The position numbers and the translations under genes are program-made. Below are positions 2,290-62,464 of a stretch of DNA of 64,000 nt, in pieces; within the stretch, counting starts at the first letter, position 1; each line of letters begins with the position of its first letter. The notes below the pieces were generated by a model, which did not search any database, was not told the DNA's origin, and worked only from the letters and a program-made list of their open reading frames with translations. The stretch is from the NCBI GenBank assembly GCA_000091205.1, contig AP006484.2; one strand, 5' to 3'. Origin of the DNA: Cyanidioschyzon merolae (lineage: Eukaryota).

Positions 2290-2444
2290 AGTTTAGGCAC
2301 TGCCGTCGTCAGAGACACAAACGTCTCCCCATGGCGTTGTGTCTGAACCCGGGGGATTCACGACGTCCATGAGAGCAGTCAGCGGCTGGACGCATCCGTA
2401 CTCGACATGCGTCAGCCGTTTGTTGCATGCAGCAATCACACATT

Positions 2445-9673: not shown

Positions 9674-12040
9674 ACAAGTCCAAGAAAATGCCGTGGGCAC
9701 GTGCTGTGCGGTTGCAGGTCGCCGGCGACGCCTCACAGGTGTCGCGTGAAAACGGAACACTGAACGAACTACCCTAAGTGTGCCTTGTGATGTCGGGGGA
9801 ATTTTCTCATGCGTACCGTCTTGACATTCGACGTGGAGGAGTCAAGAATTATTGTGGATGCGTACGTCGTTTTAGGATTCTGGATTGTCTTTTGGGAGCT
9901 GCTGTTTAGACTCTTGGATACTGACATTCGTACAATCAACGGTATCAAGACAGTTCGTGAAGCGCTCGAACAAGGATTCCTAACGTGCATGGAATCGCTG
10001 TCCAATGCATAGGGGCAGGCTTCTATGCTTCTCGCCTCCTTACGTATGGAACGTTCAAATCCCGGATTCTTCAAACTTCGATCGTTCTGGTGCAAGGCAA
10101 CGCCTGGGTACAGTGTTTGGTGCTACTGAAATGCCGAGGAGAAATACTCGACAGCATCCTTCGGCGACTTGATGGCAAGCTCTTGCGAAACGCTTCCCGT
10201 ACTTTGCACGCCAAAAAATGAGTTTCGTAACCAAGCCAAATCACCATATCTTTGTAGGCGGAAACAGAACAAGACTCGACAGCTGCATGGTACCGCGTTA
10301 GAGGTTCGCTACCAGAGACTCCGACTCTTCGGTTTGCGTAGACGGAGGTCCTAGATTTGGACCTGAATCCTAGCAGCAAGCTCTTTCAGCGCAAAGGTTG
10401 TGACTGCTTTGCGTGAAGGGATCGTGAACGGATCGAAGTTTCTCGACTTGCTCTCCAGCATGGATTTTGCTTCCAGTACTCGTCTCGTCATGGACAGCAT
10501 CGCATTCGATATATCTTCAATAGCCTAGAAGTGCGGATATCTGCGTGTTCGGCAGCCAATGTACTCACCGTGGACTTTGCCCCGCAGAAGCCCGCGATTC
10601 CTGTGCACGGCACTGGACCATGAAACGGTGGAGGGCATTCACGATAGCCCGGTGAACCGATCGAGTAGATGAACCGAGCGATACACCAAGCGTTTATGCT
10701 CCAGGAGCGGTCTTCAGACGAGGAAAAATAGGTAGTCATGGTGCGTTATGGTGCACTCCTAAGGAGATACCGCACCATAGCAAATAGTCGGCGCTATCAA
10801 GGGCGCTCCGATGCTGTAAACAAAGAGAATGAACATGGCAAGAAAAGTCGAGAATGCATTCGCTCATAGCCCTCCTGATCATGCTATGCGCGGACAACAG
10901 CCAGAGGCGACGACATGGTGTCATGAAGCCTGCCATCAACGTCCTCCAAGTGATGCAAACCGAACTGAAGAGACAGGAGACACCCACGAGATTCAAGCCG
11001 GAGGTACGAGAGCTCCGAAGAAAGCAGTCGCAGAAAAAAGATCGCAAAGGCTACCACGAGCACCAGCTGGTAAAAGCTGCAAACTTCACTATGTACACTC
11101 GAGTTCGCTAGGTGTGCGCCCGTCCCACTTTTATTCTACAAGTGTCATAAGCGCGCTTGGACTCAAGTATCCCGGAGAATACAGGACGCAAGATATGAAC
11201 CGAGTTCTATGGATTCCATCGAATCAGGAAAACTCCAGGTCTGTTCAGGCTCAACGATCTACCGGCACAGCGGACACTATAGCTTAACTCCTTTCCGCCG
11301 ATCCAAAAGCGTGCAGGAGACAACAACAACAACAACTAGAGCAACAACGCTACCCGACTTTCTATCCCTGGTGCCGTACGCTGCACTGCAGCGCTTTGAG
11401 CGGCGTTCCGTTCAGTGACGTTACCAAGCGCGTTTCGCACCTGCTTTCTTTCCGCTATCGTACTTGTCGGGTACGCTCATAACATTGACTAGGTGCACAT
11501 TGAACATACTCGGGTTCCCGCGGAACCCTTCGAAAGGCTTCGCTTTGAAGACAGCGTGCAAGCGAGCCGCAGCTCGAAGAACAGGATCCGTAGCTGCTCG
11601 AAGCGAGCACACCTAGTCCGCTATTCCGCTTAGGCTTGGATAGCTATCGAGTCGTCGTTCGCGTTCGGGTGGAGTCTGTGGGACCAGGAGACCTCCGGCG
11701 CTAGTTTAGGTCTGGTCTCGAACAGGTACTGTGCATATATTTGTCTTGGAGTCCGAATAAGCCGGTGTGTCGTACGACTTTAGAAACTCCGAGACCTACC
11801 ATTGTTGACGGGTGGGTGTACGGCGGCTGGTGCCTAGTTGTGCTTAGGAATCGTCAACAAGCGCATCGGAGGTCAAGTTTCTTGCACGCTGTCACAAGAC
11901 TCGCTGCCCAGGGGTCTCTTCACGGCACACGGCGGCTCGAAGGAGCGTTTCGTGAACCAGAGAGAACGCGGCTTCTGTGGCTGCGTTTTTAGAGACGCCT
12001 GCTCGCCGACTCTATTCCAAGTGACCCCGAGAGCACCGCT

Positions 12041-22959: not shown

Positions 22960-24612
22960 GCGGGGCAGGTGCCTGGAGGCACTGATCCTCGACACGGGAA
23001 CTCGAAGCGAAGCACGGGGGAACTGTTTTCCGTATTGTGGAAAGATCACCTTGTAGGCAGGTGCCTGGAGGCACTGATCCTCGACACGGGAACTCGAAGC
23101 GAAGCACGGGGAAACTGTTTTCCGTATTGTGGAAAGATCACCTTATAGGCAGGTGCCTGGAGGCACTGATCCTCGACACGGGAACTCGAAGCGAAGCACG
23201 GGGGACCTATTTTCCGTATTGTGGAAAGATCACCTTGTAGGCAGGTGCCTGGAGGCACTGATCCACTACAGGGGAACTCGAAGCGAAGCACGGGGAAACT
23301 GTTTTCCGTATTGTGGAAAGATCACCTTGTAGGCAGGTGCCTGGAGGCACTGATCCTCGACACGGGAACTCGAAGCGAAGCACGGGGAAACTGTTTTCCG
23401 TATTGTGGAAAGATCACCTTGTAGGCAGACTGGAGGCAATGATCCTCGACACGGGAACTCGAAGCGAAGCACGGGGAAACTGTTTTCCGTATTGTGGAAA
23501 GATCACCTTATAGGCAGGTGCCTGGAGGCACTGATCCTCGACACGGGAACTCGAAGCGAAGCACGGGGAAACTGTTTTCCGTATTGTGGAAAGATCACCT
23601 TGTAGGCAGGTGCCTGGAGGCACTGATCCTCGACACGGGAACTCGAAGCGAAGCACGGGGGAACTGTTTTCCGTATTGTGGAAAGATCACCTTGTAGGCA
23701 GGTGCCTGGAGGCACTGATCCTCGACACGGGAACTCGAAGCGAAGCACGGGGAAACTGTTTTCCGTATTGTGGAAAGATCACCTTATAGGCAGGTGCCTG
23801 GAGGCACTGATCCTCGACACGGGAACTCGAAGCGAAGCACGGGGGACCTATTTTCCGTATTGTGGAAAGATCACCTTGTAGGCAGGTGCCTGGAGGCACT
23901 GATCCACTACAGGGGAACTCGAAGCGAAGCACGGGGAAACTGTTTTCCGTATTGTGGAAAGATCACCTTGTAGGCAGGTGCCTGGAGGCACTGATCCTCG
24001 ACACGGGAACTCGAAGCGAAGCACGGGGGAACTGTTTTCCGTATTGTGGAAAGATCACCTTGTAGGCAGGTGCCTGGAGGCACTGATCCTCGACACGGGA
24101 ACTCGAAGCGAAGCACGGGGAAACTGTTTTCCGTATTGTGGAAAGATCACCTTGTAGGCAGGTGCCTGGAGGCACTGATCCTCGACACGGGAACTCGAAG
24201 CGAAGCACGGGGAAACTGTTTTCCGTATTGTGGAAAGATCACCTTATAGGCAGGTGCCTGGAGGCACTGATCCTCGACAGGGGAACTCGAAGCGAAGCAC
24301 GGGGGAACTGTTTTCCGTATTGTGGAAAGATCACCTTATAGGCAGGTGCCTGGAGGCACTGATCCTCGACACGGGAACTCGAAGCGAAGCACGAACGTGC
24401 AACAAGGTCGTTCTATCCTTATGGTAAGCGTTGCACGGGGGAACTGTTTTCCGTATTGTGGAAAGATCACCTTGTAGGCAGACTGGAGGCAATGATCCTC
24501 GACACGGGAACTCGAAGCGAGGCACGAACTTACAACAATTTTGTTTCCATCCTTATGGTAAGCGAAGCACAGGGAACTATTTTCCGTATTGTGGAAAGAT
24601 CACCTGGTAGGC
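22960..24612. repeat. tandem satellite array, ~92-bp monomer, ~17-18 units, with a 7-unit (~641 bp) higher-order repeat
   Basis: The monomer ggcaggtgcctggaggcactgatcctcgacacgggaactcgaagcgaagcacggggaaactgttttccgtattgtggaaagatcaccttgta repeats with a 92-bp period (89 bp once). Units at 23037/23129/23221 are identical to those at 23678/23770/23862, giving the higher-order repeat. The last two units carry a ~37-bp insertion (aacgtgcaacaaggtcgttctatccttatggtaagcg). The many 67-aa MERSP... ORFs in the track are artefacts of this array. Confidence 0.9.
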
Positions 24613-25140
24613 AGAAGGTTTCGTGAGCTAGACGAGTCTGCTAGGCTGGTGCTTCACTCTCTAGACAGTGGCAGGTGCTGTGGCGAGCTCTGAGCAGCTC
24701 GTCTGCAACGCAATTCATTCTGGGACTAGGTGCAGTTAGGCTGAGTCTGGGCTTCGCACTGGTCGTGGTTGACTCCTAGCTTATCGATTCGTGCTGTCGC
24801 AGGCAGTCGGTCTGCCTGTACACTTTACATGCTCCCAGAATAGCTATGTACTCCGACTCCTTGTCGAATGGAGCAGGCATCGAGCCGAAACCCCGCCCCC
24901 CCACCAGTGGTGTGGCAAAGCCGTTCTGGCCCCGTGCTACGTACGCACTACCAGCACAGGCGCTACTGCGGGTGCTCATGGCAAGTACTCGGCGCACGAT
25001 AGACCGTACGAAACAACCAGTATATTCGAGAGGAACTAGGGGTCATGGAACCTGGAGGCCGGATGCTGCATGACGAACTTTTTTTCGAATGCTAATATCC
25101 ATCCCACAGCCTAGGAACCATGGCCAATGTAAATGCTTTT
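24580..25140. repeat. dispersed ~560-bp non-coding repeat, copy A (its 5' end is the progenitor of the 92-bp satellite)
   Basis: ~75% identical to 34826-35390. Shared blocks include cgtctgcaacgcaattcattctgggactagg, tggcaaagccgttctggcc, aaccagtatattcgagaggaac and gaatgctaatatccatcccacagcctaggaaccatggccaatg. Both copies start with the ttttccgtattgtggaaagatcacct satellite motif and end near a ccatgg pair. Confidence 0.7.
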
Positions 25141-27911
25141 TTCAGAGAGAAACACGCGCCCAATGGAGCGATCATTACGTTTCAAAATAGAAAACAATTC
25201 TTTCATGGGATTCAACCACGGAGCGCACGGAGGAATAAAAAGCAGCTCTGCCCTTGATAGATTCGGCAAAAGCTCGAACGCGAGTCGAATGGTGAAATAC
25301 CACGTTGTCCTATAGAGGGATGTCGCCAGACGCCAGCGGAAAAGTCTTCAATGATTCGGCAAAGTCGTTGGTGCCATCGTATGAATCCTCTGTACCAGCG
25401 AAACCGCGGCCGGCAAATGAATCCACTACCGCTAGGACAGATGATGTCGTCAGAGTTCTCTTCGAGATCCATCGCGCACACAACGGGCTTCCTGCTCTGC
25501 GAGTAGTCACATGCGCTCCAAAGGTTTCACTTAACGGAGTTCTCATCGACTGAAAAAACCACCCCAAGTCCCAGTGCTTCATACCGATCGCTGAGTTCCA
25601 GGAATTCTGTTGTTGCGATTTCAGTGGAAGATGACTGTGCATAAACTAGGACTTGTTTCTGCGACTTTATGCCAGTGTTTCAGGATCACACGAATAAGAC
25701 GTTGAGAAGTATAGACGCACATGACGAATGATATCTTTGCTTTTGCTTTCCGTTAAGTGATCAAAGATTCGCCTTTGACGATGGACCGCAAGCACGCCTT
25801 GAGACGATCGGGTTTTCGCGCGGGGCATATAGTCGTGTTTCTTTCAGGGTTCCGCAGCCATCAGAGTATTGTGTTATGACTGACCTGATTCAGAAATGCA
25901 GTCCTTGTTGCGCTCTTCAGTAAAGCATATATCCTGCAGGCAATTCGACTACGATCTGTCCGGCACGTTGCATCGTGCTTTCGATCAGCTGCTATACCCC
26001 GCAGCGGAGGTTGCACCAACATTGAGTTGAGAGCCCATAAGCGAGCGCTGCGATACCTGGTGATTCATTGATGTGCGTCGGTGTAATTTTTTATCAAAAA
26101 GTGTGTGCCATAAAACCAGGTCATCTATGGGTGTGCGGGCATAGCTTCTGGCCTATCGCAACGCGCCGCTAGTCTTGGTGATGCACTGTTATGTGTTGCG
26201 ATGTCCTTTCATTAGTCAGCATGCTTCGTGGAAACCAGGATGGCTGTGAAGAACTTCACCGTGTGCACGCCCTGATGTCTGGTATGTAGTGTAGCGGGTC
26301 GTTTGGCGCAGCCACGTATGCACACGGAAACATCAGAACGCAGCTCCATACGATTACAGCTCCCGCTTTTTAGAATCAGCGTCGTGTCTGGCGATGCTGC
26401 ACAGCGCTATGTGCACAAGGCGGGGCAGTCGCACAGTAACATCGAAAGGTTTGCCTTGTGCCTTGAAGGACTCCGCACGTTGTGTTGCGCTGTTGTAATG
26501 CGCGAGACTGGGGTCCGCGTGCGTCTGTTCTCGACGGATTCAAGGCAGCGCGCAAGCATGAGCGCAAGGCGTCTTCCGCGTCTTCCGCGTGCTTCTGGGA
26601 GACTGCGCGCGCTAGCCTGTTCGTATGGACGAGGCGGATCGTAGACCAAGCCGAACAGCAATGGCAGGTTTTTTCAGAGCTCTCCCGTACTCGGAATCGT
26701 GCGCCCTTCGCGTCTCAGAGGCGTATCTGGTCGATACGCAGCGCCTGCTAAACGGTATAAAACTCGGGTTCGAATCCGTCCATGATTATCGGATGCAGCG
26801 CACGCTGCACATCAGTGGCGTTTCGCGGAGCCCCAGAAGAGCGCCTAGCTGCGTTGCGCCGGGCGAACGATGCTAGATGTTTGCCGCCCAGCGCGTTATT
26901 GCCTAATCTGGGCATCGTTGACCGCAAAAGGGTCATTCACCGGGGATACTTGCTACCTCGTGATATCTGTGATGACTTTTAGCAGATGCCCAGCGGAGCC
27001 AACATCTCGATATAGCGATCTGGGCATTACAAATCACAAAAGCCTAAAGTTCGACATGCAGCAGACAACCCCCCGGGTCGATTAAGATAGCGAGCTCTCA
27101 TACGAACGGGTTGTACGGCTGGATCAACTCGGGTTTCTCCAGATGAGCAAAACAGACTAGAGCGAAATGGCATGGGATCTGAGAGACATCCACTTGCATT
27201 CAAAGAGGGCACTTGTCTCGCATGATGGGCCGAGCCCTCGAATCATGCTTCCAAACCAAAAACGATATCTACTGAACGGCATCCAAATTTCGCAAGAGAG
27301 CTCGTTTCGCTACGAAAAGTAGAGCAAAACACCTCTGTGGTCGGTGAAAAACGCCACCAGCTCGATATGGCTGTAAACTGATGCAATCCATGGCCTGCTG
27401 GAGAGACACCGCCCCGCTTCAATTCATCTGCCCGATACTGACTCGGAACGAGTGTTACGGAAGAAAATTCGATTGAGCCGAAGAAGCAACACCTCAAACA
27501 ATCGCCAAAGAAGCTCCAGTGCGATCATTGGCGATGGAACAATGAAGATAAGAACATGACTGAGGCTCGCTAGTATCCTGTACCAACTTACACCACTTTT
27601 CTGGTGCAAAGAGATCGATGCATCATGCTTGAGACGCAGCTACTGCTACCTACCATAGCTGCTGCCGCAGCGAGCACTGCACCCTCTTATGGGACCGCAC
27701 CTAGTTCGACTCGAGCGCGATTCACTGAGCTACAGTGCCACTCGCATAGAGTCACCCACAGGTATTATCAAGTCTCTGCGCGTTCCGTTGATTAACTCGA
27801 AAACAACGCCACCTCAGCGGTCCCATTCACCAGGCTCCACTCGCAGCGGTTTATCCGAGTGTCGGCGCCAGCTCGCTGTACGCTGAAAGATCCTCGACGC
27901 GCACATACCGC

Positions 27912-28166: not shown

Positions 28167-31100
28167 AGGTAACGGTGGTAAACGTCCAGTGAAGCCGGAA
28201 TGCGGCGGTTACCTCGTTGTGTGCAACTGCAGGCACCCAAGGCGACGTAAAGCTATTGAAGTGCATCGGCGGCGCCTGTGGTGCCGGCGCCCGGTGCGAC
28301 GGCACCATGGATGCGCTGTCGGAGGTTTGTATGCTCGGGGTCACGGGGGATGCCCTGCTCTTTTCTCCAAAAGTATTGTGGATCGAGTAAAATGCCGGTG
28401 ACTGGCCCGCAGCACGTATGCAGCGCTTATACGGCTGCCAGGATAGAACTGCAACGAGTTCACTGACTCAACGAGGGCGAACACGCGCAAGTTTGCGTTA
28501 TTTCATATCGTCAACTGCACCAGAACTTGGGGGTTGGTTTTTCGGTCTCCTGTGTCGCGTCTCCAACTTTAAATACGCTGGTCTCTCGTTTCGCTCCGAT
28601 TTCGTGAGCATCAGTCAGAGGATCGTGATAACAGGGCCAAATTCTCGTTCATAGGATTTCCGGTTGGCATAGACACGTGATAGGCGCAGGCGAAAGTTTC
28701 GATCGAATCTTCATTGGCCATGCTCACCTATTTGTTTGCGGCATCGGCGTACGCTTTGCAGCGATCACACCCGACTATGGTCAGATGCTGCCTTGTCTCC
28801 AGCGTGCTTCCTCGTACGAGTACTGCCCTCCGGCGCTTGAACTGTTGCTGCATCGCTCTGTACACGCACTAGACGAGTACAGAAGACTCCCCGTCGATGC
28901 CCTCGACCGTTTTCGCGTCTGGTGCCGTACCCGAAGATCACGAGCTTCGTCAGTGGCGATGCCCCCGACGAGTACTCTGTATGCGTCATATGCGAGTGCG
29001 CACTGTTCCATGCCATTGAAGATTTGTGGATTGCGGTGTTCGCCATGGTGGTAGGGATTTGGAAGGAAAATGCAGGTTGGAGAACTTGCCGAGAACTATC
29101 GATCCGGTGGCGTTCTCTTCATGGAAACCTGTGAAGCTTTCCCCATTGGAAGCCGTCTCCGCTATGTGTAGAGTACGAATCCATGAACACTTTTCATGCA
29201 AACAGAAGACAGGGTAGCCTCTCTGGGAGCATATCCCCTGAATTGTATCGTGCTGCGGTTGAATCCGCCGATTCATCGACGGGCACACAGAGAGAAGCAC
29301 CTGTCTTTCGACCCGCGTCGAGTATTTGACATGCGCTTGGGAAGAAGTCGTCAAGGAAGGTCGTCGAGATTCTCTCCTCATCGAAGCAGGGACGCGCATA
29401 GCTGTGCTCCTCGGTTACCTTGAAACAGAAAGATCGAGTTCTAGGAAACTGTATGAATTGAGCACGCGATATTTACGGAACGGAGAAGAGTCAAGGCTTG
29501 TTGTTCTGCATTGCGTTAAAATATCGGTTATTATAAGAGCCCTTGTACGAATCTGTCGCATGTCACTGTGATGATGGTGAGGTGACGAATTCTACTGGGA
29601 CTTTGTCGAAGGGGCCGTCCCGGAGAAAACAACCGCCGAGAATCGTAAACCAAGGTATGCATCCAAGAACGCCAATTCCCGCACTTCGAAATTAGAGGCG
29701 CAATATCAACACAAGTTCGCAGAGAAAATCGACAGATAGAAACAGAACGAGCAGTTCAGTTCGCGATGGTAGTTCGACACCATTGTGGAGCGCAGCAGCG
29801 TATCGCGCTCGTTCGACTGTACCTGGACGAGTTCGGATAATGTGCAGTCGGGCACACGAACCAGCCCGGGCAGAACTTGGTCCAGGCTCACCTGGGATGC
29901 TGGAGTGTCCTGAGGCGCAACTGGGTATGCCCGTTTGCCGAAACGATTCATTGTCGTTCGTTGGCACTCGTTTAGAGAGACACCCAGCTGCTAGACATGT
30001 GTGCACCATGCGTCCTTGGTGCGTGCGAGCGACGAATATCCCAATGTCGTCGGATCCCGTGGATGACAACCACGCAGCATCGACTCGTTACTCGTTCGAC
30101 GCACTAGTTGATGCCGCGGGCGTGCCGCCATCGCGTGCTATAGCGCGTCCTGCGCCAAAGGCGAATACCGCACCACGTGACTTGTCGGTCATGTTCTTTG
30201 CCACTTCATTGATGAAGCCCGCAAATCTATGCATCTTGCCTCCATGCAACCGATACCGTTGGCGGCCCCAGCGAGGTCTCTCGGAACGCTGTCGAAAATC
30301 GTTCGCACGAGCCATGTGGACGCTTCTGCTCTGTCCAGTGCTGGGCGCTACGGAATCGATGTTGGCACTGTCACGCCATTTGTTGGTATATACGCTGGCG
30401 TCCATAATGCTCGACTACCCATAAACGCGAACAATGGAGAAATCAAGCCATATTACATATTCTGTCTGAGCATCAATTACCCTGTCATATGAAGGTTCTA
30501 TCGAAAATTTCGAGAGGCATCTGCTCAGCTGGTAGCCCTGCGTCCGGATCGGCTACAGCAAGTCGTTTGACGAGGTGCATCGGGGCGAGAGCGGTGCCTC
30601 GCGAGACTTTGTCGCGTAAGGAGCTATGCGATATCTGTTGGCGTCCTGAATCTATCGATTAGCCGGAGACGAACTTGTTGGCTAGTGATCTATGCGCGTA
30701 AAAACCGCGTTTGCCGATAGTGACAATGCCGTACACTGGATAGAAGCTGGGAGCATGGGCTGGTACGAAGACCAGGTCCAGCCAAATTCCAGCTGTATGC
30801 TCCCTGTTTCTTGTTCAGTCATGGAACGCGACATTGCTAACGAGCAGGACAGACGAATTTGGTAAGGAGGAGCTTGGCAGAGAGACTCGATGAACGACGC
30901 GTCGTCGAGCAATCCTAACCGTTCGGCGATTTGGGGCCGGCCTCACGCTTGACTCCCCGCTGGGCCTGAAGCCGTTGTCGCACGTGCTTGACTCCTCTTT
31001 ACGGCCGGAGGTCTGCCCCTACTTCATCAACGATGCACAGACCTGCCAGTCTTCCCGAATCAAGACTCATCGAATGAGACGAACACCATCCAAACCTGTA

Positions 31101-33488: not shown

Positions 33489-34015
33489 TCAGGGAGGCGG
33501 TGACTTGTCGCCTATGTTTGCAGAAGAAGGTCGATCTGCGGTGCGCGTAGCACAGCACTCGATATGAAACTTTGTGCTTTTATCCGTTCCCGCTCCGTTT
33601 GGATACGGAGCGCGCACGACGCAGAGCTCTTTGCGAGCACGCCGAGCCGCCTCATGCGCTCCAAATAGTTTCCACGAAACGGGTCGTTCACACGAGCCGT
33701 CTATGACGGCAAAGAACGCATGTCCACTGCTACTACCTAAGTAAGCATACCTGGTTCTGAAATAATCTCCGTGAAAGCACACGAGAACGTCTTGGTGGTT
33801 TTGATACCCGGAAATACGTCTCAGCGATCGCCGATGTCCACACAGCATCGGCTGCGTCTCTTCCGGAACGTGCCTGGAGAGTCGGTATGAGCCCAGGAGA
33901 TGTAGCTTTTGTGGCGGTGCGGCAACAGAGTACATAAATATACACCCACCCGCAGCAACCTCACAGCATTTTTCGACCCGCAGCCTGTTACTGGTTTCAG
34001 CCTGTCCGAGTACAC
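33489..34015 (-). pseudogene. possible metallophosphoesterase fragment, frameshifted
   Basis: Two overlapping minus-strand ORFs in different frames. One ends CCVDIGDR (GDxxDR-like) and the other has LCGHRRS (GHxH-like) and DYFRTRYAYLGSS. The match to calcineurin-like phosphoesterases is weak. It abuts the miniature Fanzor-element copy. Confidence 0.15.
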
Positions 34016-34039
34016 TTCTAGCCTGAGAGAGGCTGCGTT

Positions 34040-34700
34040 ACAAAGATAGATTGCCTCGGCTCCTCGGGTCTTGTTTCAGCACCGCTCATCTTCTGATATT
34101 CATGGCGGCGTTGAAGTCTCAGTTCACAAACTCGATGCGTTTCTTACCTCTGGTTGAACTCACCAATGCAAGGAGTCCTATAGCTCGTGCCATGTGTGCC
34201 CCTACAGCCTCGTCAGCGCCTCGCCGCGTAAACCCATTGCTCGCTTATCTCCTGTCTTGTTCTTCTTCTTCTTCTTCGTCGCTTGCGCTTCATCGCGTGA
34301 CAGTCAGAGAGAAGGGGATTTTGTTCGTTCCTCCCGGGCAGCCGGCGATGGCGGCCCTCGAGGCTCCTCGGCTTCCTTGTCCACCAGTTTCGTTTTTAGT
34401 TTTGAAAACGAACGCATTTTAAACGCATCTGCTATAAACCGCGAAGGAGTACTTGAATACACGAATCTGAAGGCCGGAACGCATTTGGGATCAAACATCA
34501 TATTTTGCTCCGGCTTCAACGCAAATACAACTTGCACGGTAGAGCAGCGGGCTTGATGACGCCATGCTTTGCGCTTGTCGTGCATTGAGCACGTCACCGG
34601 CAACAGTGCACATTCCGAATGCAACATCGCTAGTTTTCTGGCAAGTCAACGAGTAATCAGGATCGCGTTTCCCTTCAACAGCAACATGCGCGTCGTGTCT
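34040..34700 (-). mobile_element. internally deleted (~660 bp) non-autonomous derivative of the Fanzor/TnpB-bearing element at 58.9-61.6 kb
   Basis: 34040-34215 is homologous to 58914-59085, the 3' end of the nuclease ORF plus ~18 bp. It encodes a degraded ...EFVN*DFNAAMNI with an in-frame stop. 34215-34700 is homologous to 61250-61625, the N-terminal KEEKK-coding start plus the upstream AT-rich region and right terminus. Shared strings include gatcgcgtttcccttcaacagcaacatgcgcgtcgtgtctcat vs gatcacgtttcccttcaacggcggcgcgcgcgtcgtgtctcat. About 2.2 kb of internal coding sequence is absent. Confidence 0.6.
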
Positions 34701-34825
34701 CATGCCCGACAGCTATGGAGGTACGGATCTCGGCTGCGCTATAGAAAAAAGAACAGAAACGATCCACTCCGTGGCAACTAGATCAAAAGTTCTTTCGCCT
34801 CTACTATAAGCGTTGAAACGGGAAC

Positions 34826-35390
34826 AGCTTTCCGTATTTTGCAAAGTTCACCTTCTCGGCGGAAAGTCCTGCAGGTCGGACAAGACTACTAGGCTAATAC
34901 GCTGCACTCTACGGAGCGAAGGGTACTGTAGTGAGATCTGGGCAGCCCGTCTGCAACCCAGTTTATTCTGGGAATAGGGTCTGGTATGCTTCGTCTGGGC
35001 ATCGTTTTGGTCGTAGTGCTCTTCTTGCATATCGCTTCGCGTTGTCGCGGGCAGCAAGTCTGTCTGCACAGCTTGCAAGCTCCCGGAATTACACTGAATC
35101 CCGATTCTGTGACTAGTGCACCACACCTCGCGCAGACGCCATCAGTGGTATAGCAAAGCCGTTCTGTCTCCGTGCAGCATCCGCACAGGCGGTATAAGCG
35201 CTATTGTGAGTGCTCAGATCACGTTAGGTGCACAGTGGAACGTGCAAAATAACCAGTATATCCGAGCGGAAGTACGAATAATGGAACTTGGACTTGTTGG
35301 GCAGCCTGCTTGACACTTTTTCGAACGCCAGCATCCATCCCGCTACGCTGGATCCATGGTCCATGGAAACGTTTTGGCAAAGAAAGAAAT
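34826..35390. repeat. dispersed ~560-bp non-coding repeat, copy B
   Basis: Homologous to 24580-25140. It begins with one satellite-like unit (aacgggaacagctttccgtattttgcaaagttcacctt). It lies ~100 bp from the miniature Fanzor-element copy. Confidence 0.7.
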
Positions 35391-35607
35391 TCGCCCACCG
35401 GCGGCATTTGCCGTAGCTGGAGCAGTGCTGGAGCGCTGGGTCGGTGACCACTGCTTGACAAAGTGTCAACGTGCTTCCTTGTTATCTTTATTACTCGCCT
35501 GAAATCCAAAGTGTCTACGTGCGTACGTGCTAGCTGGTTGCGCGGTCGCTAGTTTCATGCTGCGCTTGGACAGAGGCTCAGGATAAATAATCGAGGCGTT
35601 CATAGAA

Positions 35608-44141: not shown

Positions 44142-46219
44142 GGAGCTCGGAGTCGTTAACAATCCAACGCTGGAACCCAACTCGAGCAACGCTCCGTCAA
44201 CGGGTGTGCCAACGGGTTTCAGACGCAGCTGCTGACCCTAGTACGGCATTGCAGACGCGCACGCGCGCACGAACCGCTGCGCCTTGCTGGAAATGCGCTC
44301 ATCGGACGGGCGATTCGGGGCTCGGGCGCGCTTATCACCTGCGGATCTTGCAGTTTCTTCGGATTCATGTATTGAACCCGAGTTCCTCGGATACGTGAAG
44401 GATCTCGGCTGGTAGAGAAGCCTCCACTGTTCATACTCACATGAGCCTGCTGCCTGTCGGTCTTAGAGCCGTGTTCCTGTAGGGAACAGAAGCTGGATGG
44501 GATCCAGCGACCCCGAAAGCACCAATGAAGGGCGCGTGCAGCATTGCTGAATATTTCGTGATACAGTATCAGCGAATCGTGTGATGTTTTCCTGCATACC
44601 CAATTGACGTATTTGAGCAAGGAAGAGAATTCAATGCCTCTATATACGTTTCTGCGTAAATCACAGTCCAGATCAGTCTTCCTATCACGAATCTACGCTG
44701 TAATGGCCAAGAAATCTTGGGCAGGGTAACCAGCACACCGCAAACAATCGCTGCAACGCTGATTGCGGAGCTGCTGCTGCTGCTGCTGCTGCCGTTGTGG
44801 ACAATCATTCGCGACTGAACAGTTCTGCGCTGCCTGTATGCGCGTCGACTCGAGGCCGCCGCCGCCGCCGCCGCCGCGAACGCTCGTGCATCGTGGGCGA
44901 ACGCGCAAAGCCGTTCGTGAACGGTGAATCATAAGCTGGGCTTTCGTGTCACATGTTTTCGTATAAGTCAGCCAGACACTCATGTCATGCAATACGCGGA
45001 AGAGCGCTACTATCCTAACTCGAGCGTACGCTGCACAGTTTGGGTCTGCTCCCACTATCATCGATGCCGGTGTTTGCGGGCTGTTTCAGCGACGGCTTTC
45101 TCTTCTTCCCTCATATACTGGGCGTTACGTACGTCGGTTTCTCCGGTACCTCCAGTTCCACTTTCATCAGTCTTGGGATATTTATGGTTGTGTTCAAGTC
45201 CCGATTCCAATGCTTCTGTCTGTTGTCCATGACTTGCATACACAGGCGCAACTCGCGTTGGACGCTTCGTTTGCCAATTTCATGGACTCTGTATACAGTT
45301 TCGGTGAGCCCTCGGCTGCGCGGACACGTTGCCTTGGTCAGATATTCCCATATGTCCACCAGGCCTCCTCATCTGAAGGTCGATCTGTGAAGCGTGACCG
45401 GCTGCTTCATCGCTTGCAACATGCCCTTGACGAGTACAGAAGGCGAGCCTCGGTACCGCCCTCTGTATCCGCGCCATGAGCTGGGCGCTATGCTCGCGAG
45501 CGTCCCCTTAACGATTCCTCGGCGAGTACGCTGTCCGCTGCACACGCTGTTCCATTCCATAGCATACTTGTCGGATGCGATGTCGTCCATGGTGAAACGG
45601 GTACTGAAAGGAAGATCCTGGCCGGAGAACAAGTCGTGAAATTTCGTACCGTCTGCACTCTTGTAGTACGAAGTGGAGGCGCACGTTGCGCCGGAACCGA
45701 CCGCTGCGATGACTCTAGTTCGTGTCTACGACGTTTTCCTAGCTTACATAAGATACAAGATCTTCTCTAGGCATATCACTTGCTAGTTATAATGCTGTTG
45801 CCGAATGCGTTCGTCGATTGCCACAAATAGAGGATAATTTGAATTCCGAAGGGATTCAATTATGCGACATGATAAGTTCAGTGACCTTTTCGCATGAGCT
45901 TTTGAACAAATCGCCAACGGACAATGCCGCGTATCGCTTTCCTCGGTAGCCCGGCAGCGCGGATAGCTGCGCCCTCGAGTCGCCATGAAACGGAAAGATC
46001 ATCCGTTTGAAGCAGGCATGATTTGAGTCTGCTATACGTAAGGAAATCAGAATCGTGATGCGTTTTACGTATGGGTTGGGTAATGATATCGGTTCGGTTA
46101 CGAAACCTTATCTCAGGACGTCACGGAACGTCTTTGTTCCTGTATCGTAACAAAGTCGACGGACGATGCGCCGAAATAGTCTCTCCCGAACGACGACCAT
46201 GCATCCTAAATTGACGATA

Positions 46220-46690
46220 TCATCCGTACGCCCATATCATTGTACTTGGCCTATAGAAACTATGCATCTCCATAAAAGTCTGCATCCCAATCGCGAGACA
46301 GGAGCAGAGCATGCGCTTTGTACGCCCGTATCATTGTACTTGGCCTATAGAAACTATGCATCTCGATAAAAGTCTGCATCCCAATCGCGAGACAGGAGCA
46401 GAGCATGCGCTTTGTACGCCCGTATCATTGTACTTGGCCTATAGAAACTATGCATCTCGATAAAAGTCTGCATCCCAATCGCGAGACAGGAGCAGAGCAT
46501 GCGCTTTGTACGCCCGTATCATTGTACTTGGCCTATAGAAACTATGCATCTCGATAAAAGTCTGCATCCCAATCGCGAGACAGGAGCAGAGCATGCGCTT
46601 TGTACGCCCGTATCATTGTACTTGGCCTATAGAAACTATGCATCTCCATAAAAGTCTGCATCACAATCGCGAGACAGGAGCAGAGCAAAC
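46220..46690. repeat. tandem satellite, ~94-bp monomer x ~5
   Basis: tacgcccgtatcattgtacttggcctatagaaactatgcatctcgataaaagtctgcatcccaatcgcgagacaggagcagagcatgcgctttg repeats with a 94-bp period. The terminal units are diverged. It is unrelated in sequence to the 92-bp satellite. Confidence 0.85.
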
Positions 46691-48576: not shown

Positions 48577-51500
48577 GCGGAAAGCGAAAGCCCTGCGAGA
48601 CGTCGCTGCCGCTACGTACATGCGGCACGCTCTCGACGGCTTGGCGTGCCTGTGCTGTGCAAAGCAATGGACGCACGTTTAGAGACATAAATAGCGCCTG
48701 CTGCATGGATCTGCCCGGTGTCCGCTCTGTGCATCCTTGAAAGCTTTTGCGAGGAGGTATGTCCACATCTATTGCTCCAGTAACCCAGTTTTGGACAGCT
48801 GTGAGCGCCACTTGCGCAACGCATATGGCAACGGCTGCCGATACCACCAGTGTCCTGACTGCATGTACGAAGGCCTGGGGCGTGCGCCTAACGTTGCAAC
48901 CACTGCCGTGCGACAGAGCAAGCGGCATCGCGGTGGCATTTCGGTGTATGGCCAGGGATTGTGCTTAAGCACGTGACCGCCAAGTACATGTTCATCGTCA
49001 GAAATTCATGCAATGGACAATGCGAGCTCTACCTCGACGATAGGGTATCGATCGCATGCGGCCTGTAATGACGATTGTAGCGTATGCGCTAGTCCATTGC
49101 CGCTCACCAATGGACGCGTTTCGTTCGCCAACATGGGGTAGTGTTTGGCGCCTTTTCGCGTAACGATGATGAGCATTGTCCTGCGACCCGTTGCTCCGGC
49201 CGTGCGGCAAGGCCGCATTTCTTTTCGATCGTCTAGGATCGGTGCATCGAACCAGGGATTCTCCCGGTATGTGCGCGGGCGAATGCCCTGAGCGTCGCTG
49301 CATGGCTACGTTTGGATTGTTCTACAAAATCTATAAATATACAAATTTGAAATGCGTGGGGTACACACGAAGCGTCGCTGCATCGCAATGACCGCCTCGT
49401 CCTCTAGAATACGTAAATGAATGAGAATTCGATGGCGTCGATGGCGAGGCTCTTCCAAGCCGCTGAGGGCACCGATTGCGCGAGGCATCCAGCTTCTGCT
49501 CTTGTGCGTCCAGCTTGCGTCATTGGCGCTGCAGCGAGAATAGTCCATGATGTCTATGGACATGAGGAAACAGGCAGTGGACTGTTCAGCGCTGAGCACC
49601 GACGAGCACGTTCGCTGTCGCCATGACAATGTCCGTTCTGGCACACGAGGCAGCTTGAGGATCTGCGCGAGTGCTGTAACATCCGAGTCAAAATAGAATG
49701 GAGCATTGGACTATGCGACCGGTAACTGTAGCTCGATTCTCTCAGAACTTTTCTCGCATGTTCAACCTCGATATTCGAAGAGCAGCAATAAAGGCTTGCG
49801 GATTCACACGCATTTTTTTGGATTCGAGGTTGCTTCTTTGGAATAGCTCATACGAATATCTGATGCTGAATTTGGTCACGTCACCGGAATCAGGATGATT
49901 CCCAACGCCCCCGGAATGAAACTTTCGCAAAATAGCCGAAATCAACTTCGATTTCAAATGTACAAGCCTCCAATCTTCTCCGTTCCGGACGTGACGCATG
50001 TCTCAAGTCCTCGATCATTCTGTTTCGGGATACATCATGGGTAAAGCACTTGCCGCCGTTGGATTGTCGTGGGAAACATACACGGTATTGACTCTTCAGG
50101 AGTCGTCCACAAGGCCATGCTGAGCGCTCACTGCACTTTTCTCGCCGAAAAATCGATTTCGTTAGAGGCACAAATCCGCCACTTTTTGTGGTCAGCGACG
50201 AAATGGCATTCGACAGAAGCATGATGCCCGTCACTTGATATGCTCCTAGAGGCTCCAGTCTCTTCCATTTGCACGGAGCAGGGTCTTGGATTCGGACTCG
50301 AGTCATCGCAGCGATCGCCTGCAATAGATAGTTTGTCATCAATGCGTGCGAAAGGCGCATACACAGATCGGAATTTCTCGACTTGATCTCCATCCTGGAT
50401 TCTCCTGCCGGTGCTTGGTTCATCATAAACAATATCACGTTCCAGAGATCCCCTATCGAATGGAAAAATGTGCACTGGCGCGTCCAGTGGACGCGGTGCT
50501 CGCCGAGGGCATCGCCGGGAGGAGAGAGTGATCTTCAGGTGCGGCACACGGCGCAGAAAAGAGAAAGGGTATCAGGAGGAGCCCTCTGAACTCGCCAAGG
50601 GCATGTACTGAACGACGAAGCGAATGTCTACTCGCCACAGAGAGTCGTTTAGAGGAGCAGCAATGGTATACATATGGGGACCTTTGAGCACTGCCAAGTC
50701 CTAGCGCCGCGAGGCTCGCACCAAGCCACCATACAAATACGATGAAAATAGCAAGCGAAGCGTAGATTGCGACTTTCGCCAGTGCAAGAAAAGCGTTGAC
50801 AATAGCCAGAAGTGTCTACATCGGGACTTGCGCGTTCATCTGCATCGTTCCGCTGCTGATAACAGTGCTTGGGGGTACAAGAGATCCCTGAGTTTTTAAA
50901 GCCGGCGGAAACAGAAAGGAACCGGAACCAGTCGCAGAGACAGCACGCCAACGCCGGCTTTCATCACAGCAGGAAAGGCTCGAGCTTGAAGGTCTACGTC
51001 CGAGTGAGCAAAACTTACCCGTACCATTTTTGTCCGAGAAGGGTGTAGTGGTACCCGCAGGCGCGTCCCTCGCAGCGCCAGGAAAATCCCCATGCTGCTG
51101 CGGCGGCCGAGTCGTCCGTAGAGTCATGATATTGACGTCCGAGTCATGCTCCAGCGTCTCTAATGCAGGGTCATATACTGGATGAAGGGTGTCAAAATTA
51201 GAGCTGCAGCGGGTATCGAGATGCGTAAATGCGCCCTTCTTCGTGATAAGGCAGATAAACGCGGCAACACGGAATGTTTATCCCGAGGGTCGCATCTTGC
51301 GCCTGTCGGCGCACCCGAGTAAACGGAAGCACACACAAGCATTGCTATGGAGAGTAAGCGGCCGCTAGCGACATTTAGAACCGGGAAGACACAACAGGAC
51401 GGTGAGCCTTGCGGCGGCGGTGGCGGTGGCGGCGGTAGCAACAGAAACTGCAGCGATCTGTTGCTTCCAAGTTTAATTTCGTTCAGAAAGCTTCGCAAGA

Positions 51501-58737: not shown

Positions 58738-58767
58738 CACCACCGCCTTTCGAAAGTCGAACGACGT

Positions 58768-58840
58768 CGCCGACGGTATAGCGTAGTGGCGGCAAACGGG
58801 CCTTAGACAAATCGTCTCCAACTGATGTGCAGACGCCTCC
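58768..58840. repeat. 73-nt direct repeat, left copy, flanking the Fanzor-element region
   Basis: cgccgacggtatagcgtagtggcggcaaacgggccttagacaaatcgtctccaactgatgtgcagacgcctcc vs the right copy cgccggccgtgcagagtagtggcgagtgacccgccccagacatgacgtgtccaactgacgtgcagacgcttcc at 62392-62464. Confidence 0.6.
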
Positions 58841-58931
58841 CCGTCTTTTTCGACCGGCCACGCACTACTGGTTCCCACTTTTTCTCATATAGTTCGATTT
58901 TGAGGGGTTGTCCTACAAAGGACCTTGTTGT

Positions 58932-61315
58932 CTACTCTGGAGGTCTTTTCTCCAGCACCGCACATCTCCTTATATTGATAGCGGCGTTAAAGTCTCTGTT
59001 AACAAATTCCATACGTTTCTTGCCATCATTGGTTGTACTTACTAGTGCAAGTAGTCCTCGAACTTTTGCCATCCTTTCCATTTGCTCGTCTGTCAGCGGT
59101 CCGTACTTTGCGATTTCCTCAGGGCTCCACTGGCACTTTTCCATCTCGACCCTCTGAAGTCTACACCCCAGTTCATGGTGCGTATACGATGTTCGGAACT
59201 CATCTACGGATATTGTAACGAAACGTCGTGCACACTCTTTGTACACCCTCGTCGTTGGAGAAGACGTATTCTCTTTCTTGGGCGCCCAGCGCCCTGCCCC
59301 ATACGCTACTACGAGCCTCTGACTCTCATCCTCCTTCAAGGCGACCAACTGATTGAAAAAGTTGGCAAACGCCCGCTGTTTCCCGCCGTATAGATTCATT
59401 CGCAAACGAGCCCACCGGGGCTTGGTATCCTCCTCCCACAGCGCATCCCAATGAGCAACACGAATTTCCATGAATTTCCGAAAAGCTTCAAAGTCCGCTC
59501 CTCGGCTCGTCACCTCGCTCAAAGCTCCCAGGTGATCCTTCATTCCTGAATTCCAAGTCTCGATTTTCTTCCTCGCATTCATCATTCCCAATTCTCGATA
59601 GTATCTCGCTCTCGAGAACCCCAAAAGACGCATGTCTTTCTGACGCAAGTTACCGTCAATGCCATCTTCCGCACGCTTTGGTGCTGCGATGGTTATGATA
59701 TTCGTGTTCCCAGGGTCCGCGCCAACGACAAAGTCGTTATCCTGCACTTTCTGTGTCCGAGGGCCCGCCTTCTTGTTTTCTACATGCTTCGCCGCGCCAA
59801 CCATAAAGGCGTTATCCTACACCTCCTGCATCACAGGATCCGCCTCCTTCTCGTGTTCACCCTTGGTCACGTTAACGACAAAGTCGTTATCTTGCACTAT
59901 CTGCTTCTCAGAACGCGCCTTGTTGTTTTCTTCATGCTCAGACAGGCCAGCGACAAGGTTGTCATCCTCCACCTCCTGCATCGCAGGACCAGCCTCCTCC
60001 TTTTCTTCATCCTTCGTCACGTCAACGACAAGGTCGTTATCCGCACCTCCTGCGTCGCAGGATCCTCCTCTTTGTTTTCTTCATCCTTCGCCACGTCAAG
60101 GACGAGGTCATTATCCTCCACTTCCTATGTCGCAGGACCAGCCTCCTCCTTTTCTTCATCCTTTGTCACGGGCGCAGCCGAGGGCGCAACTGGCCGATCT
60201 CCCTTCAACGGCCGATAGTGTATACACAAGGCTACTCCATCGGTTTCAATCATCCCGCTGAACAACTTCTGCTTGCTCACTCTCAGAGGTTTGAAATCGA
60301 AGATGCTCTTCCTGTACGTCTCCCGGTTTTTACCAGAGAATTCCTCTGTGCTAACATTGGACTCTGGACTGATCTCCTTCATGATGCCATGAAGGACGCC
60401 GGAGTTGATAGTCACAAAATGTGACTCGATCTTGCACATTGGAACCACGTTGAAGCGCTTACCCATTAGGACAGACTTCCGTCTCTCCCACTCTTCATTT
60501 GTCTCTTCACTCAGCTTCATCTCCGCTTCGCGTTCGAGTTCACGGTCCAAAAACACAAGATACCGCAGGGAGAGGCGATAGTATTTTTCCTTATCTATTT
60601 TCAACTCTGATACCTTTTCTGTTGGATTCACCAGCCCCAAGACTGCACGGTGCTCTTGTATAGCCGCACGGGTTACAGAAGCTTCATTCGTGCTCCCTTT
60701 TGACGTCTACTTGTCGACAAATTCGACCTCACCTTGATGCTTGCGATCTCTCGTGATGCCATTGATCATCGCCCATATTCCTTTGCGAGAGATACCTGGG
60801 TAGAGTGCAACCGCGGCGCGTACTATGAAACATTCGAGGATCACTGTCAAATGGTTCTTCAGATTCGTGAGGTACTTCATCGCTCCGTATGTGTAAATAC
60901 CCTGGCCACCCTTGTATCGATTACCCTCGAAGCGGAATTCCGCGAAGTTTTCGTGGAGGCCGTCCACTAGCACATTTTCCTTCCGCGCTTCCGCTGTACC
61001 AAAGATGAGGTAACGAAAAAAGGTCTTTTCGAAAAACTCGTCCGGAATCTCGACCGTTTCCATGTGCGTCACGTCGCGATACATCTCCCTCGCTAAATGC
61101 ATCAGTCCTGACGACGCCTCTATAATACTCTTGGAGTCCGAATCGACACGGTTTCTGATAGCGTCTCGCAAATTTTCTCTGCAGGGATCCTTGACATGTC
61201 CAAGAAGAGAGGTATTCACAACCATCTCGTTGTACAGTCGTCTTTCTTGCAGCCTTCGACGCAGGACCTTCCCCTTTTGGGTCTTCTTCTCTTCCTTTTC
61301 TCCTGGACTCGGCAC
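58932..61315 (-). pseudogene. Fanzor-like (eukaryotic TnpB/IS605-OrfB family) RuvC nuclease gene, interrupted by an in-frame TAG and a frameshifting intragenic tandem repeat
   Basis: C-terminal 290-aa segment (58932-59804) has Ruv[24 protein letters not shown]. It has an IGDW-like LVVAYGAGRW. RuvC-II is TISVDEFRTSYTHHELGC with a Cys/His cluster. RuvC-III is NRDFNAAINIRRC, then stop. The N-terminal parts (60710-61315 and 60128-60706) share one frame but are separated by TAG at 60707-60709. They begin with a K/E/R-rich NLS-like stretch (GEKEEKKTQKGKVLRRRLQERR). The frame shifts in the repeat block 59700-60180. The track start at 61315 is GTG, so the true N-terminus is undefined. Confidence 0.6.
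59700..60180. repeat. intragenic tandem repeat (~74-bp units, ~5-6 diverged copies; 148-bp double unit) inside the Fanzor-like ORF
   Basis: gacaaagtcgttatcctgcac / gacaaggttgtcatcctccacctcctgcatcgcagga motifs recur at ~59729, 59808, 59877, 59953, 60027 and 60100. The units encode repeated ...[19 protein letters not shown]...[10 protein letters not shown]... peptides. The segment encoding the RuvC-I strand DNDFVV is reiterated three times. Confidence 0.75.
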
Positions 61316-62391
61316 TGTTTTTTGTTTTTTCTGGCAGCCTGCGACCCTGGGCCTCCAGGATCGTCGACTTCCTTTTCATAACTTTTCTTTTCTAGTTTTT
61401 TTAAATGAACCCTCTGTGAACGCTTCTGTTATATACTGCGAAAAATCAATCGAATATTTTCACTTGAGGGTTGAAACACAATCGAACTAAAAACTATACT
61501 TGCCTATGAAATTAACGAAAATACAACTTTTACACGAGAGCTAGACGCTAAAGATCAAGATCACGTTTCCCTTCAACGGCGGCGCGCGCGTCGTGTCTCA
61601 TATCTGCCCCAACTCTCAGGTACGCTCATCGAGCGCGATGCATGCGCTGCGCGAGACGCCTCATCGATCGATGAAGGACACGTGTCCGACACCCCGCCTT
61701 GGCATATGCGTGTTTGTATCGCGCTGCAGCTGAAGTAAAGTATCGTAGATTGGAAACTCACGTAGAGTAATCTCTTGCTATAGGCTCTGTCGCTGGTGCC
61801 GAAGCTACTGCCCATCGCAGTACCGCCTTGACATACATGGAGATGTAGGGGCCTGGCACGATACCCCTCGACGCTTCTATCAAAAGCGTAGCGTTCTCTG
61901 CGGCTTACGCTTGTCTGGATAAGGTACGCATCACTCTAGCCTTGAAGAGTTTCGTTAGTTTTATTGATCGTAAACAAACAAGGGACGGTAGGATTCCTGA
62001 ACACGGACATACGTTTAATTCCTATGCTTGTTATGCATGCCGCACGGACGCTGGAATAAGGACCTGACCTGAATTTTGCTTCTATCCCGCGTCATGGGCT
62101 AGAACCGATGATAGTTCAAGTCATTTCCATGCTATCGTCGTTGTCCAAGTTATGATGCCCGCTACGTCCCCCGGATCCGGTGGTCTCGGCAGAGGCATAC
62201 CACATATGTGGCGTCCATATCTGCCACGACGTTTGAGCCTTGCATCTCGCCTGGCACGATCGAGGCATCCGGCAATAGCACATATTGTGTTCTGATCTAC
62301 TCTATAAGATTGGTTTCAAGAGCCTAACCCGTACATCGAGCCCGGAAGCGACATAGCCAACAACAAATGCCTTTGAAAAGAAAAACTTTTT

Positions 62392-62464
62392 CGCCGGCCG
62401 TGCAGAGTAGTGGCGAGTGACCCGCCCCAGACATGACGTGTCCAACTGACGTGCAGACGCTTCC
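62392..62464. repeat. 73-nt direct repeat, right copy
   Basis: See the left copy at 58768-58840. The two lie ~3.55 kb apart in the same orientation. Confidence 0.6.

Follow-up and report, generated by a model that had tools for sequence, protein, structure and literature searches.

A probable internally deleted CMe-1A-type Fanzor1 copy in Cyanidioschyzon merolae and the mini-copy family that shares its deletion junction

This report concerns a short transposon copy from the red alga Cyanidioschyzon merolae, found in a stretch of 64,000 nucleotides of contig AP006484.2 (GenBank assembly GCA_000091205.1) that was analysed as a whole and is called the window here. A first-pass annotation, made from the letters, had flagged positions 34,040-34,700 as a miniature derivative of an element encoding a Fanzor nuclease, of which a longer copy (the window full copy) lies elsewhere in the window. 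The flagged stretch forms the middle of an element of ~1.45 kb, referred to below as the mini copy, that extends from ~35,385 to ~33,910 on the minus strand. This element is very probably an internally deleted, heavily mutated Fanzor1 copy of the CMe-1A type, and it has lost its open reading frame (ORF). The same deletion junction is present in at least 12 loci, i.e., the window copy and 11 others within ~0.7 Mb of related metagenome sequence. The mini copies are therefore a non-autonomous family, in which one deletion came first and multiplication came after.

Family Assignment of the Window Copies

CMe-1A is a Fanzor1 element of Cyanidioschyzon merolae with a 3,169-bp consensus (Bao & Jurka 2013, Mob DNA 4:12, PMC3627910). 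The same authors described an element of ~3 kb with ~150 copies, each ~80% identical to the consensus, and without terminal inverted repeats (TIRs); they listed both its target-site duplication and its class as unknown and recognised the first 635 bp of the 5' part as a separate element, TE-N2_CMe. The consensus was taken from the supplement of that paper and served as the BLAST reference for the window coordinates given here. Judged by their DNA sequence, both window copies are members of this published family. The CMe-1 protein (~734 aa) matches the broken ORF of the window full copy in two pieces, at 71% and 85% identity (tblastn), and a C-terminal ORF of 290 aa has 293 protein homologs that are 67-99% identical. 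A metagenome scan that used the C-terminal ~90 residues alone as the query indicates that the family is abundant, with more than 371 confirmed loci in hot-spring metagenomes; 79 loci were fetched. One of the loci (L011) has an intact, continuous ORF of 778 aa, and the gene has no intron.

Three things support the predicted assignment of the parent gene to Fanzor: the DPG, DEFRTS and NRDFNAA motifs, an hhalign match and the 2013 paper. In the family ORFs, RuvC-I, RuvC-II and RuvC-III occur in order as GADPGNTN, PVDEFRTS and FVNRDFNAAINI. When a family alignment was compared with another Fanzor1 protein from the 2013 supplement by hhalign, the first two motifs aligned (probability 71%, E 3.7e-5, 164 columns). 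The intact ORF had no match in Pfam, and the family ORFs gave one sub-threshold match there, to Cas12f1-like_TNB (E 0.09), and no match in a PDB sequence search. An AlphaFold2 model made from a 20-sequence alignment had a mean predicted local distance difference test score (pLDDT) of 37.6, which is too low for fold comparison.

Anatomy of the Mini Copy

The mini copy contains CMe-1A positions 4-~1019 joined to ~2809-3088, followed by a subfamily-specific tail; all of the parts described here are on the minus strand. It opens with a 5' module at 34656-35385 that corresponds to CMe-1A 4-730 (BLAST 35379-34656, 76.6% over 732 bp, E 9e-151). The first 635 bp of this module are TE-N2_CMe, and a conserved block, GAGACACGACGCGC..GTTGAAGGGAAACGCGATCCTGAT, is located at 34656-34703. 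Many full copies have the same ~730-bp module immediately upstream, and homology has a sharp end at 35385-35397 (~25 loci). The adjoining 109 bp (34547-34655), which fall between CMe-1A 730 and 742, match neither the consensus nor any of the sampled copies, with zero coverage among 83 related loci, and represent either an insertion private to this copy or a segment that was replaced. The 5' untranslated region and the first ~21 Fanzor codons are found at 34321-34546 (CMe-1A 742-969; 76.8% over 228 bp, E 8e-44); alignment to the window full copy around its ATG indicates that the start codon, at about 34381-34383, has changed from ATG to GTG.

The next segment (34226-34320, CMe-1A ~970-1019) holds a Lys/Arg/Glu-rich N-terminal coding remnant and the deletion junction, and the step to CMe-1A ~2809 falls between about 34271 and 34225. 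The last ~93 Fanzor codons, including RuvC-III, occupy 33945-34225 (CMe-1A ~2809-3088). Within them, 34179-34077 is 83% identical to consensus 2855-2960 over 106 bp (BLAST, E 2e-25), and the C-terminal remnant is 70% identical to CMe-1 protein residues 647-689 (tblastn, E 3e-10). The minus-strand translation of the mini copy, GLLALVSSTRGKKRIEFVN*DFNAAMNIRR*AVL, can be compared with GLLALVSTTNDGKKRMEFVNRDFNAAINIRRCAVL in the full copy. RuvC-III, the one RuvC motif left in the mini copy and adjacent to a stop, is recognisable in it, as the first-pass annotation had stated, with two in-frame stops (34119-34121 and 34086-34088) in place of the one that had been counted. Only ~38 N-terminal and ~93 C-terminal codons are retained, and the ~734-aa CMe-1 protein is no longer encoded. 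The element ends in a subfamily-specific 3' tail, GTGTATATTTATGTACTCTGTTGCC... (33905-33944), which is like the tails of loci L058 and L084 and unlike the CMe-1A consensus end. The 3' extent of ~33,910 comes from comparison with other mini copies, among which conservation drops between 33945 and 33915. The extent of ~660 bp given earlier was thus too short, with boundaries that were off by ~100-130 bp on the 3' side and by ~690 bp on the 5' side.

The homology to the Fanzor copy in the window was correctly recognised. BLAST aligns 34067-34193 with 58942-59072 (131 bp, 78.6%, E 4e-23), as well as 34656-34703 with 61554-61601 (85%, 48 bp). Iterated Smith-Waterman comparison adds a collinear match of 34337-34445 with 61333-61442, which has a score of 61 against a shuffle maximum of 27, and a collinear, marginal one of 34518-34545 with 61514-61541. 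Chance similarity is excluded, both by BLAST and Smith-Waterman scores above those of shuffles and by the match to the CMe-1A consensus.

A Single Deletion and an Old Family

A single deletion took out CMe-1A ~1020-2808, i.e., almost all of the nuclease gene. The other mini copies are located away from full copies, in loci L058, L070 (two), L047, L032 (= L044), L009 (two; = L037), L063, L068, L043 and L082. For nine loci, a single alignment to the window mini copy spans the deletion junction (BLAST of the fetched loci), and a multiple alignment of the 12 mini copies is continuous across it. When independent mini loci are mapped to the consensus, their 5' blocks stop at 968-970 and their 3' blocks restart at 2840-2862; the mini consensus itself maps to CMe-1A 791-1019 plus 2809-3088. 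One and the same junction in 12 loci means that the breakpoints are non-random and that multiplication of the derivative followed the deletion. The claim of an internally deleted, non-autonomous Fanzor derivative is therefore upheld by at least 11 further loci, and the objection foreseen in the first-pass annotation, that breakpoints might prove random, falls away. Its figure of ~2.2 kb missing relative to the window full copy also agrees with the present alignment, as the sum of ~1.8 kb of consensus sequence and that copy's own tandem expansion of a 75-bp unit.

The burst of multiplication was an old one, because the mini copies are only 60-74% identical to each other; the window mini copy is 76-83% identical to the consensus. 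From 34425 to 33945 the mean pairwise identity of the mini copies is ~0.55-0.67 with no peak, which means that decay has been even along the length. The present mini copy is most likely an inert relic.

The Neighboring Full Copy and the Parent Subfamily

The window full copy (58744-61637, minus strand) corresponds to CMe-1A 648-3169 at 84-88% identity (BLAST to the consensus). The first-pass annotation had used it as the full-length reference for the mini copy; it is a pseudogene of a different subfamily and not the parent. Its coding sequence is broken by stops at 60707-60709 and 58932-58934, plus frameshifts. An intron in this copy (GTGAGG...CAG, ~60650-60733) was considered and is ruled out by the 778-aa ORF of L011, which is continuous across the region; the TAG of the window full copy there is therefore a mutation. 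At 59792-60170 the window full copy carries a tandem expansion of a 75-bp coding unit (CMe-1A 2117-2196). This acidic 75-bp (25-codon) repeat lies just upstream of RuvC-I, e.g., in proteins P0002, P0005 and P0085, and its count varies: the published consensus has a single unit, and some copies have at least five.

The 3' end of the window full copy is at 58,744 to ~58,737, and not at 58,914 as previously annotated, judging by how far 83 related loci cover this copy and by how 54 distinct 3' ends align. The family 3' terminus reads ...CGTTCGACTTTCGAA(A/C)GGCG(TT..), and the consensus 3' terminus (~3089-3169, ...GCCACTACTGTACACCG..CGTTTTTCTTTTGAAAGGCG) is present in the window full copy at 58744. 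The ~18 bp that were thought to lie beyond the stop have to be reinterpreted, since the TAG in question (58932-58934) stands where the consensus and most copies have a TTG codon and an ORF that is 49 codons longer. About ten sampled copies have TAG at that codon (the window copy and L028, L030, L072, L062, L079, L071, L047, L060 and L046), and the sequence downstream of it is as conserved as elsewhere. The shared early TAG is either a subfamily marker or a hint of a non-coding reason for keeping the stretch. The flanks of the two copies (58895-58913 and 34020-34039), which had been read as differing in the manner of a guide plus target, are both internal to the elements, because the mini copy continues past 34,040 and the full copy continues to 58,744. 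The difference between them is divergence.

The parent of the mini copies can be sought from their tails. A 222-position profile of 54 full-copy 3' ends is matched only to ~132-140 by the mini copies, both by the one in the window and by 10 others; in the window the match covers positions 1-132 (nhmmer, E 6.5e-8) and reaches ~33,950. The standard last ~80 nt (CMe-1A ~3089-3169) are absent from the mini copies and another tail is present instead. The earlier statement that both termini are retained consequently fails at the 3' side, where the profile match ends at ~135 of 222. The mini tails align with the tail of a divergent full-length copy, L084, and two protein signatures of the mini copies, SST-GKKR and KLKPVTG, recur in the same copy (protein P0048). 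The parent of the mini copies was therefore of a different subfamily, and the same matches to P0048 and L084 rule out the neighboring full copy as the parent.

Element Ends, 5' Modules and Mobilization

The deleted derivative would have been mobilized in trans through cis-acting end sequences, like other non-autonomous elements. Across the variants of the family the 3' few hundred nt are constant and the 5' parts are exchangeable, and this suggests that mobilization is driven from the 3' end.

At least three types of 5' module can be distinguished. In addition to the TE-N2 type, the window full copy has an alternative module of ~830 bp (61638-62464, minus strand) that is unrelated to TE-N2 and opens with a copy of the element's 3' end; positions 62369-62464 are a 96-nt copy of CMe-1A 3073-3168 with 80% identity. 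This module, which gives its copies terminal direct repeats, recurs in the independent loci L007:3006-3844, L026:923-1772 and L013:2436-3619, which have homologous spacers of ~735 bp (Smith-Waterman scores of 738-963 versus a null maximum of 26). At least one module type exists beyond these two. The 5' module of the mini copy also exists alone, as a solo TE-N2_CMe-like element at 24581-25144 (minus strand; CMe-1A 4-554, 78% over 565 bp, E 7e-127), and 24559-25162 matches 34807-35397. As a separate observation, two loci have head-to-tail copies (L081:1-1051 and L083:1056-4047), in which the TE-N2 module of the next copy, in the same orientation, begins no more than a few hundred bp after a 3' end.

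No inverted repeats were found at the ends of either window copy. In most of the long-form junctions inspected, a T-run is located in the flank directly before position 1 (..TTTT|CGATGAC..); examples are L021:3185, L084:3393, L043:3643, L078:3768, L029:3881, L033, L040 and the window at ~35385. The 5' end of the element contains the palindrome AAACGTTT, and many copies have the palindrome CGTTCGA..TCGAACG close to the 3' end. The mini-type 3' tail (GAAACGTTTA..CACTGAC) is similar to the 5' terminus.

Do the Mini Copies Encode a Guide RNA?

The first-pass annotation had proposed that the retained 3' end of the ORF encodes the scaffold of a guide RNA (ωRNA). If so, the mini copy would be a so-called ghost locus, whose transcript reads into its own flank and guides the Fanzor of intact copies in trans. 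We consider it unlikely that the mini copies are ωRNA sources for a Fanzor nuclease, even though the retained segment, CMe-1A 2809-3088, is the usual site of TnpB and Fanzor ωRNAs and the 134 ghost Spu-1 loci discussed below provide a precedent (Saito et al. 2023, PMC10432273). There are two weak hints in favor of a 3' RNA. Conservation at third codon positions is 0.85 over the final ~120 nt of the ORF, as compared to 0.77-0.80 in the preceding 700 nt (25 full copies), and about one in five full copies has an ORF that ends at the shared early TAG and has nevertheless kept the ~190 nt downstream of it.

The structural analyses do not strengthen these hints. Hairpins can be drawn in the consensus 3' end, and for five of them, drawn by hand, 83% of the cells in the full-copy 3' ends are paired; this is the shuffle expectation, as 104 of 500 shuffles reach the observed value. 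Their covariation score is 0.095, both observed and shuffled (218 of 500 shuffles reach it). RNAalifold, applied to 45 and then to 37 full-copy 3' ends, gave weak energies of -3 to -10 kcal/mol with almost no compensatory pairs. Mean single-sequence folding z-scores against mononucleotide shuffles were -0.2 when the last ~85 nt were folded and -1.9 with the last ~180 nt, and a search of the whole window against Rfam gave no match. The structure and covariation that the annotation had expected in the 3' region thus found no support among 45 full-copy 3' ends, which is not a disproof, since the covariation test has low power among dead copies that drift neutrally whatever the master copy needs.

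The mini copies themselves provide further arguments against a guide function. They are missing the ~80 nt with which a standard 3' end closes and in which the scaffold would meet the guide, and in the 12-copy alignment the putative ωRNA part has no excess of conservation over the rest (flat, ~0.6). The window mini copy is 17-24% diverged from the consensus, and the comparison of flanks that had been offered for a guide used internal sequence, as noted above.

Other Origins for the Window Copy

Several points weigh against the reading of the mini copy as one member of an old family of deletion derivatives. CMe-1A 4-790 is present only in the window mini copy, and the other mini copies begin near 790; either these descend from such a copy with a 5' truncation, or recombination gave the window copy its 5' part back. 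The exact 3' terminus of the window mini copy is uncertain by ~35 bp. Flat conservation among dead copies leaves a function in master copies possible. Finally, the class of CMe-1A was already given as unknown by Bao & Jurka (2013, PMC3627910).

The first of these points invites the explanation that the window copy is a composite, in which a mini element of ~550 bp, starting near CMe-1A 790, was joined by ectopic recombination or gene conversion to the 5' fragment of a long-form copy or of a solo TE-N2-bearing copy. The 5' modules of the CMe-1A family have demonstrably been exchanged, and the private insertion at 34547-34655 is nearby. However, the alignment to the consensus is unbroken through position 790, where one high-scoring segment pair covers 742-969, and identity to the consensus is equal on both sides (~77%), so that such a joining seems very improbable. 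That a single full-length copy simply lost its interior by a random decay deletion and was never a mobile deleted form would suit the heavy decay of the window copy and its position as the only mini copy with a complete 5' module, but this is hardly credible when 11 other loci, with different contexts and flanks, have the same junction and random deletions would differ.

Genomic Setting

The window has 55% G+C and long intron-less ORFs; it encodes, among others, peroxin-3, SPT6, NOG1, SAC1 and AdoHcyase. The mini copy sits between the APS-kinase and MRP-L20-like genes. Window positions 20621-44189 and Cyanidiococcus yangmingshanensis (L086, JANCYV010000019.1) have their genes in the same order: NOG1, APS kinase, MRP-L20-like, hydrolase, SAC1. 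The best matches among named proteins come from Cyanidium caldarium (81%, AdoHcyase) and Cyanidiococcus (49%), with no C. merolae entry among them, and place the host in the cyanidiophycean red algae. The spacer between the APS-kinase and MRP-L20 genes is 3.13 kb in the window versus 1.25 kb in Cyanidiococcus yangmingshanensis and in a second relative, and no CMe-1A homology was found in the syntenic spacer of either one. These are distant relatives (49-51% protein identity), and what the comparison provides is the absence of the element and a spacer shorter by 1.9 kb, not exact junctions. The spacer difference agrees with a putative lineage-specific insertion. Intergenic spacers are generally much longer in the window where CMe-1A or TE-N2 lies; for example, the distance from NOG1 to APS kinase is 9 kb versus 2.9 kb.

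Some other repeats were observed in the window. A tandem array of ~16 units of ~92 bp (23016-24482) adjoins the solo element at 24581-25144; its unit comes from CMe-1A/TE-N2 ~520-564, and it has the appearance of a satellite that arose from a piece of a transposon. A distant Fanzor relic on the minus strand at 30091-30447 has 32% amino-acid identity to CMe-1 residues 462-591 (E 9e-11) and appears to represent a second, far more divergent Fanzor lineage. Another tandem array, at 46226-46687, consists of about five 94-bp units that are 98-99% identical and is located some 350 bp upstream of the AdoHcyase gene (47032). A dispersed repeat with ~63-67% identity, unrelated to CMe-1A, links 45195-45934 with 50830-50078 and 10308-10515 with 50242-50450; one of the pairs is inverted.

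Comparison with Known Systems

The closest known system is CMe-1A itself, to whose consensus both window copies have 76-88% DNA identity. The family as seen here also fits the published description, with a length of ~3 kb, many copies that are ~80% identical to the consensus, a lack of TIRs and a 5' part of ~635 bp that exists separately, as in the solo copy at 24581-25144. The mini copies differ in the last ~60-80 nt, in which they resemble L084. The CMe-1A paper described full-length copies and TE-N2_CMe; it described neither an internally deleted subfamily nor the second 5' module that opens with a copy of the 3' end, as in the window full copy. The corrected anatomy of this published but unclassified element redefines where it ends, comprises two alternative 5' modules and has a T-run at the 5' junctions. 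The family also gains a deletion-derivative subfamily, of which the flagged copy would be an ancient relic and not a guide locus that is still active.

In the precedent mentioned above, Spizellomyces punctatus has 134 ghost Spu-1 loci that have no ORF and whose ωRNAs are functional with SpuFz1 (Saito et al. 2023, Nature 620:660, PMC10432273). Conserved 30-nt inverted repeats bound the ghost loci, their ωRNA region is strongly conserved, and their ωRNAs guided SpuFz1 to cleave in human cells (Saito et al. 2023, PMC10432273). The mini copies are like them in being multi-copy, ORF-less Fanzor1 derivatives with element ends that outnumber or rival the ORF-bearing copies. They differ in having no inverted repeats, a flat and low conservation (~0.6) and a retained part of the ORF, and they are known from sequence alone. 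It is conceivable, if rather doubtful, that the mini family is the red-algal counterpart of the Spizellomyces ghosts. By this analogy, a short tail together with the Fanzor gene's last ~280 nt would suffice both for copying, in a 3'-end-driven, one-ended or rolling-circle-like manner after T-runs, and for supplying guides in trans; the exchangeable 5' modules, including the one that opens with a copy of the 3' end, would be by-products. To our knowledge, what Fanzor nucleases do for their transposons is still an open question, and if the mini family did supply guides, this small, tractable red-algal genome would be a natural system in which to study it.

Among prokaryotes, the non-autonomous derivatives of IS200/IS605 that are like palindrome-associated transposable elements (PATE) or miniature inverted-repeat transposable elements (MITE) are short, keep the transposon ends and need enzymes in trans. 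The mini family differs from them in its eukaryotic host, and no subterminal hairpin pair came to light in it; no TIRs, which would be one criterion for a MITE, were found in the mini copy. We know of no TnpA-type transposase for the CMe-1A family.

Another parallel is provided by CRe-1, CRe-2 and CRe-3 of Chlamydomonas, which are Helitron2-like Fanzor1 elements with 5'-truncated and internally deleted forms, TTTT having been described as the target of those Helitron2 elements (Bao & Jurka 2013, PMC3627910). The CMe-1A copies resemble them in their constant 3' ends, variable or truncated 5' parts and internal deletions, and may also do so in the T-run at most of the long-form junctions inspected and in the palindrome near the 3' end; the resemblance is limited to junction composition and architecture. 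In conclusion, the CMe-1A family and ORF-less ghost Fanzor loci were already published, and what is added here is a deletion subfamily with a shared junction, the corrected ends of the elements and a second 5' module.

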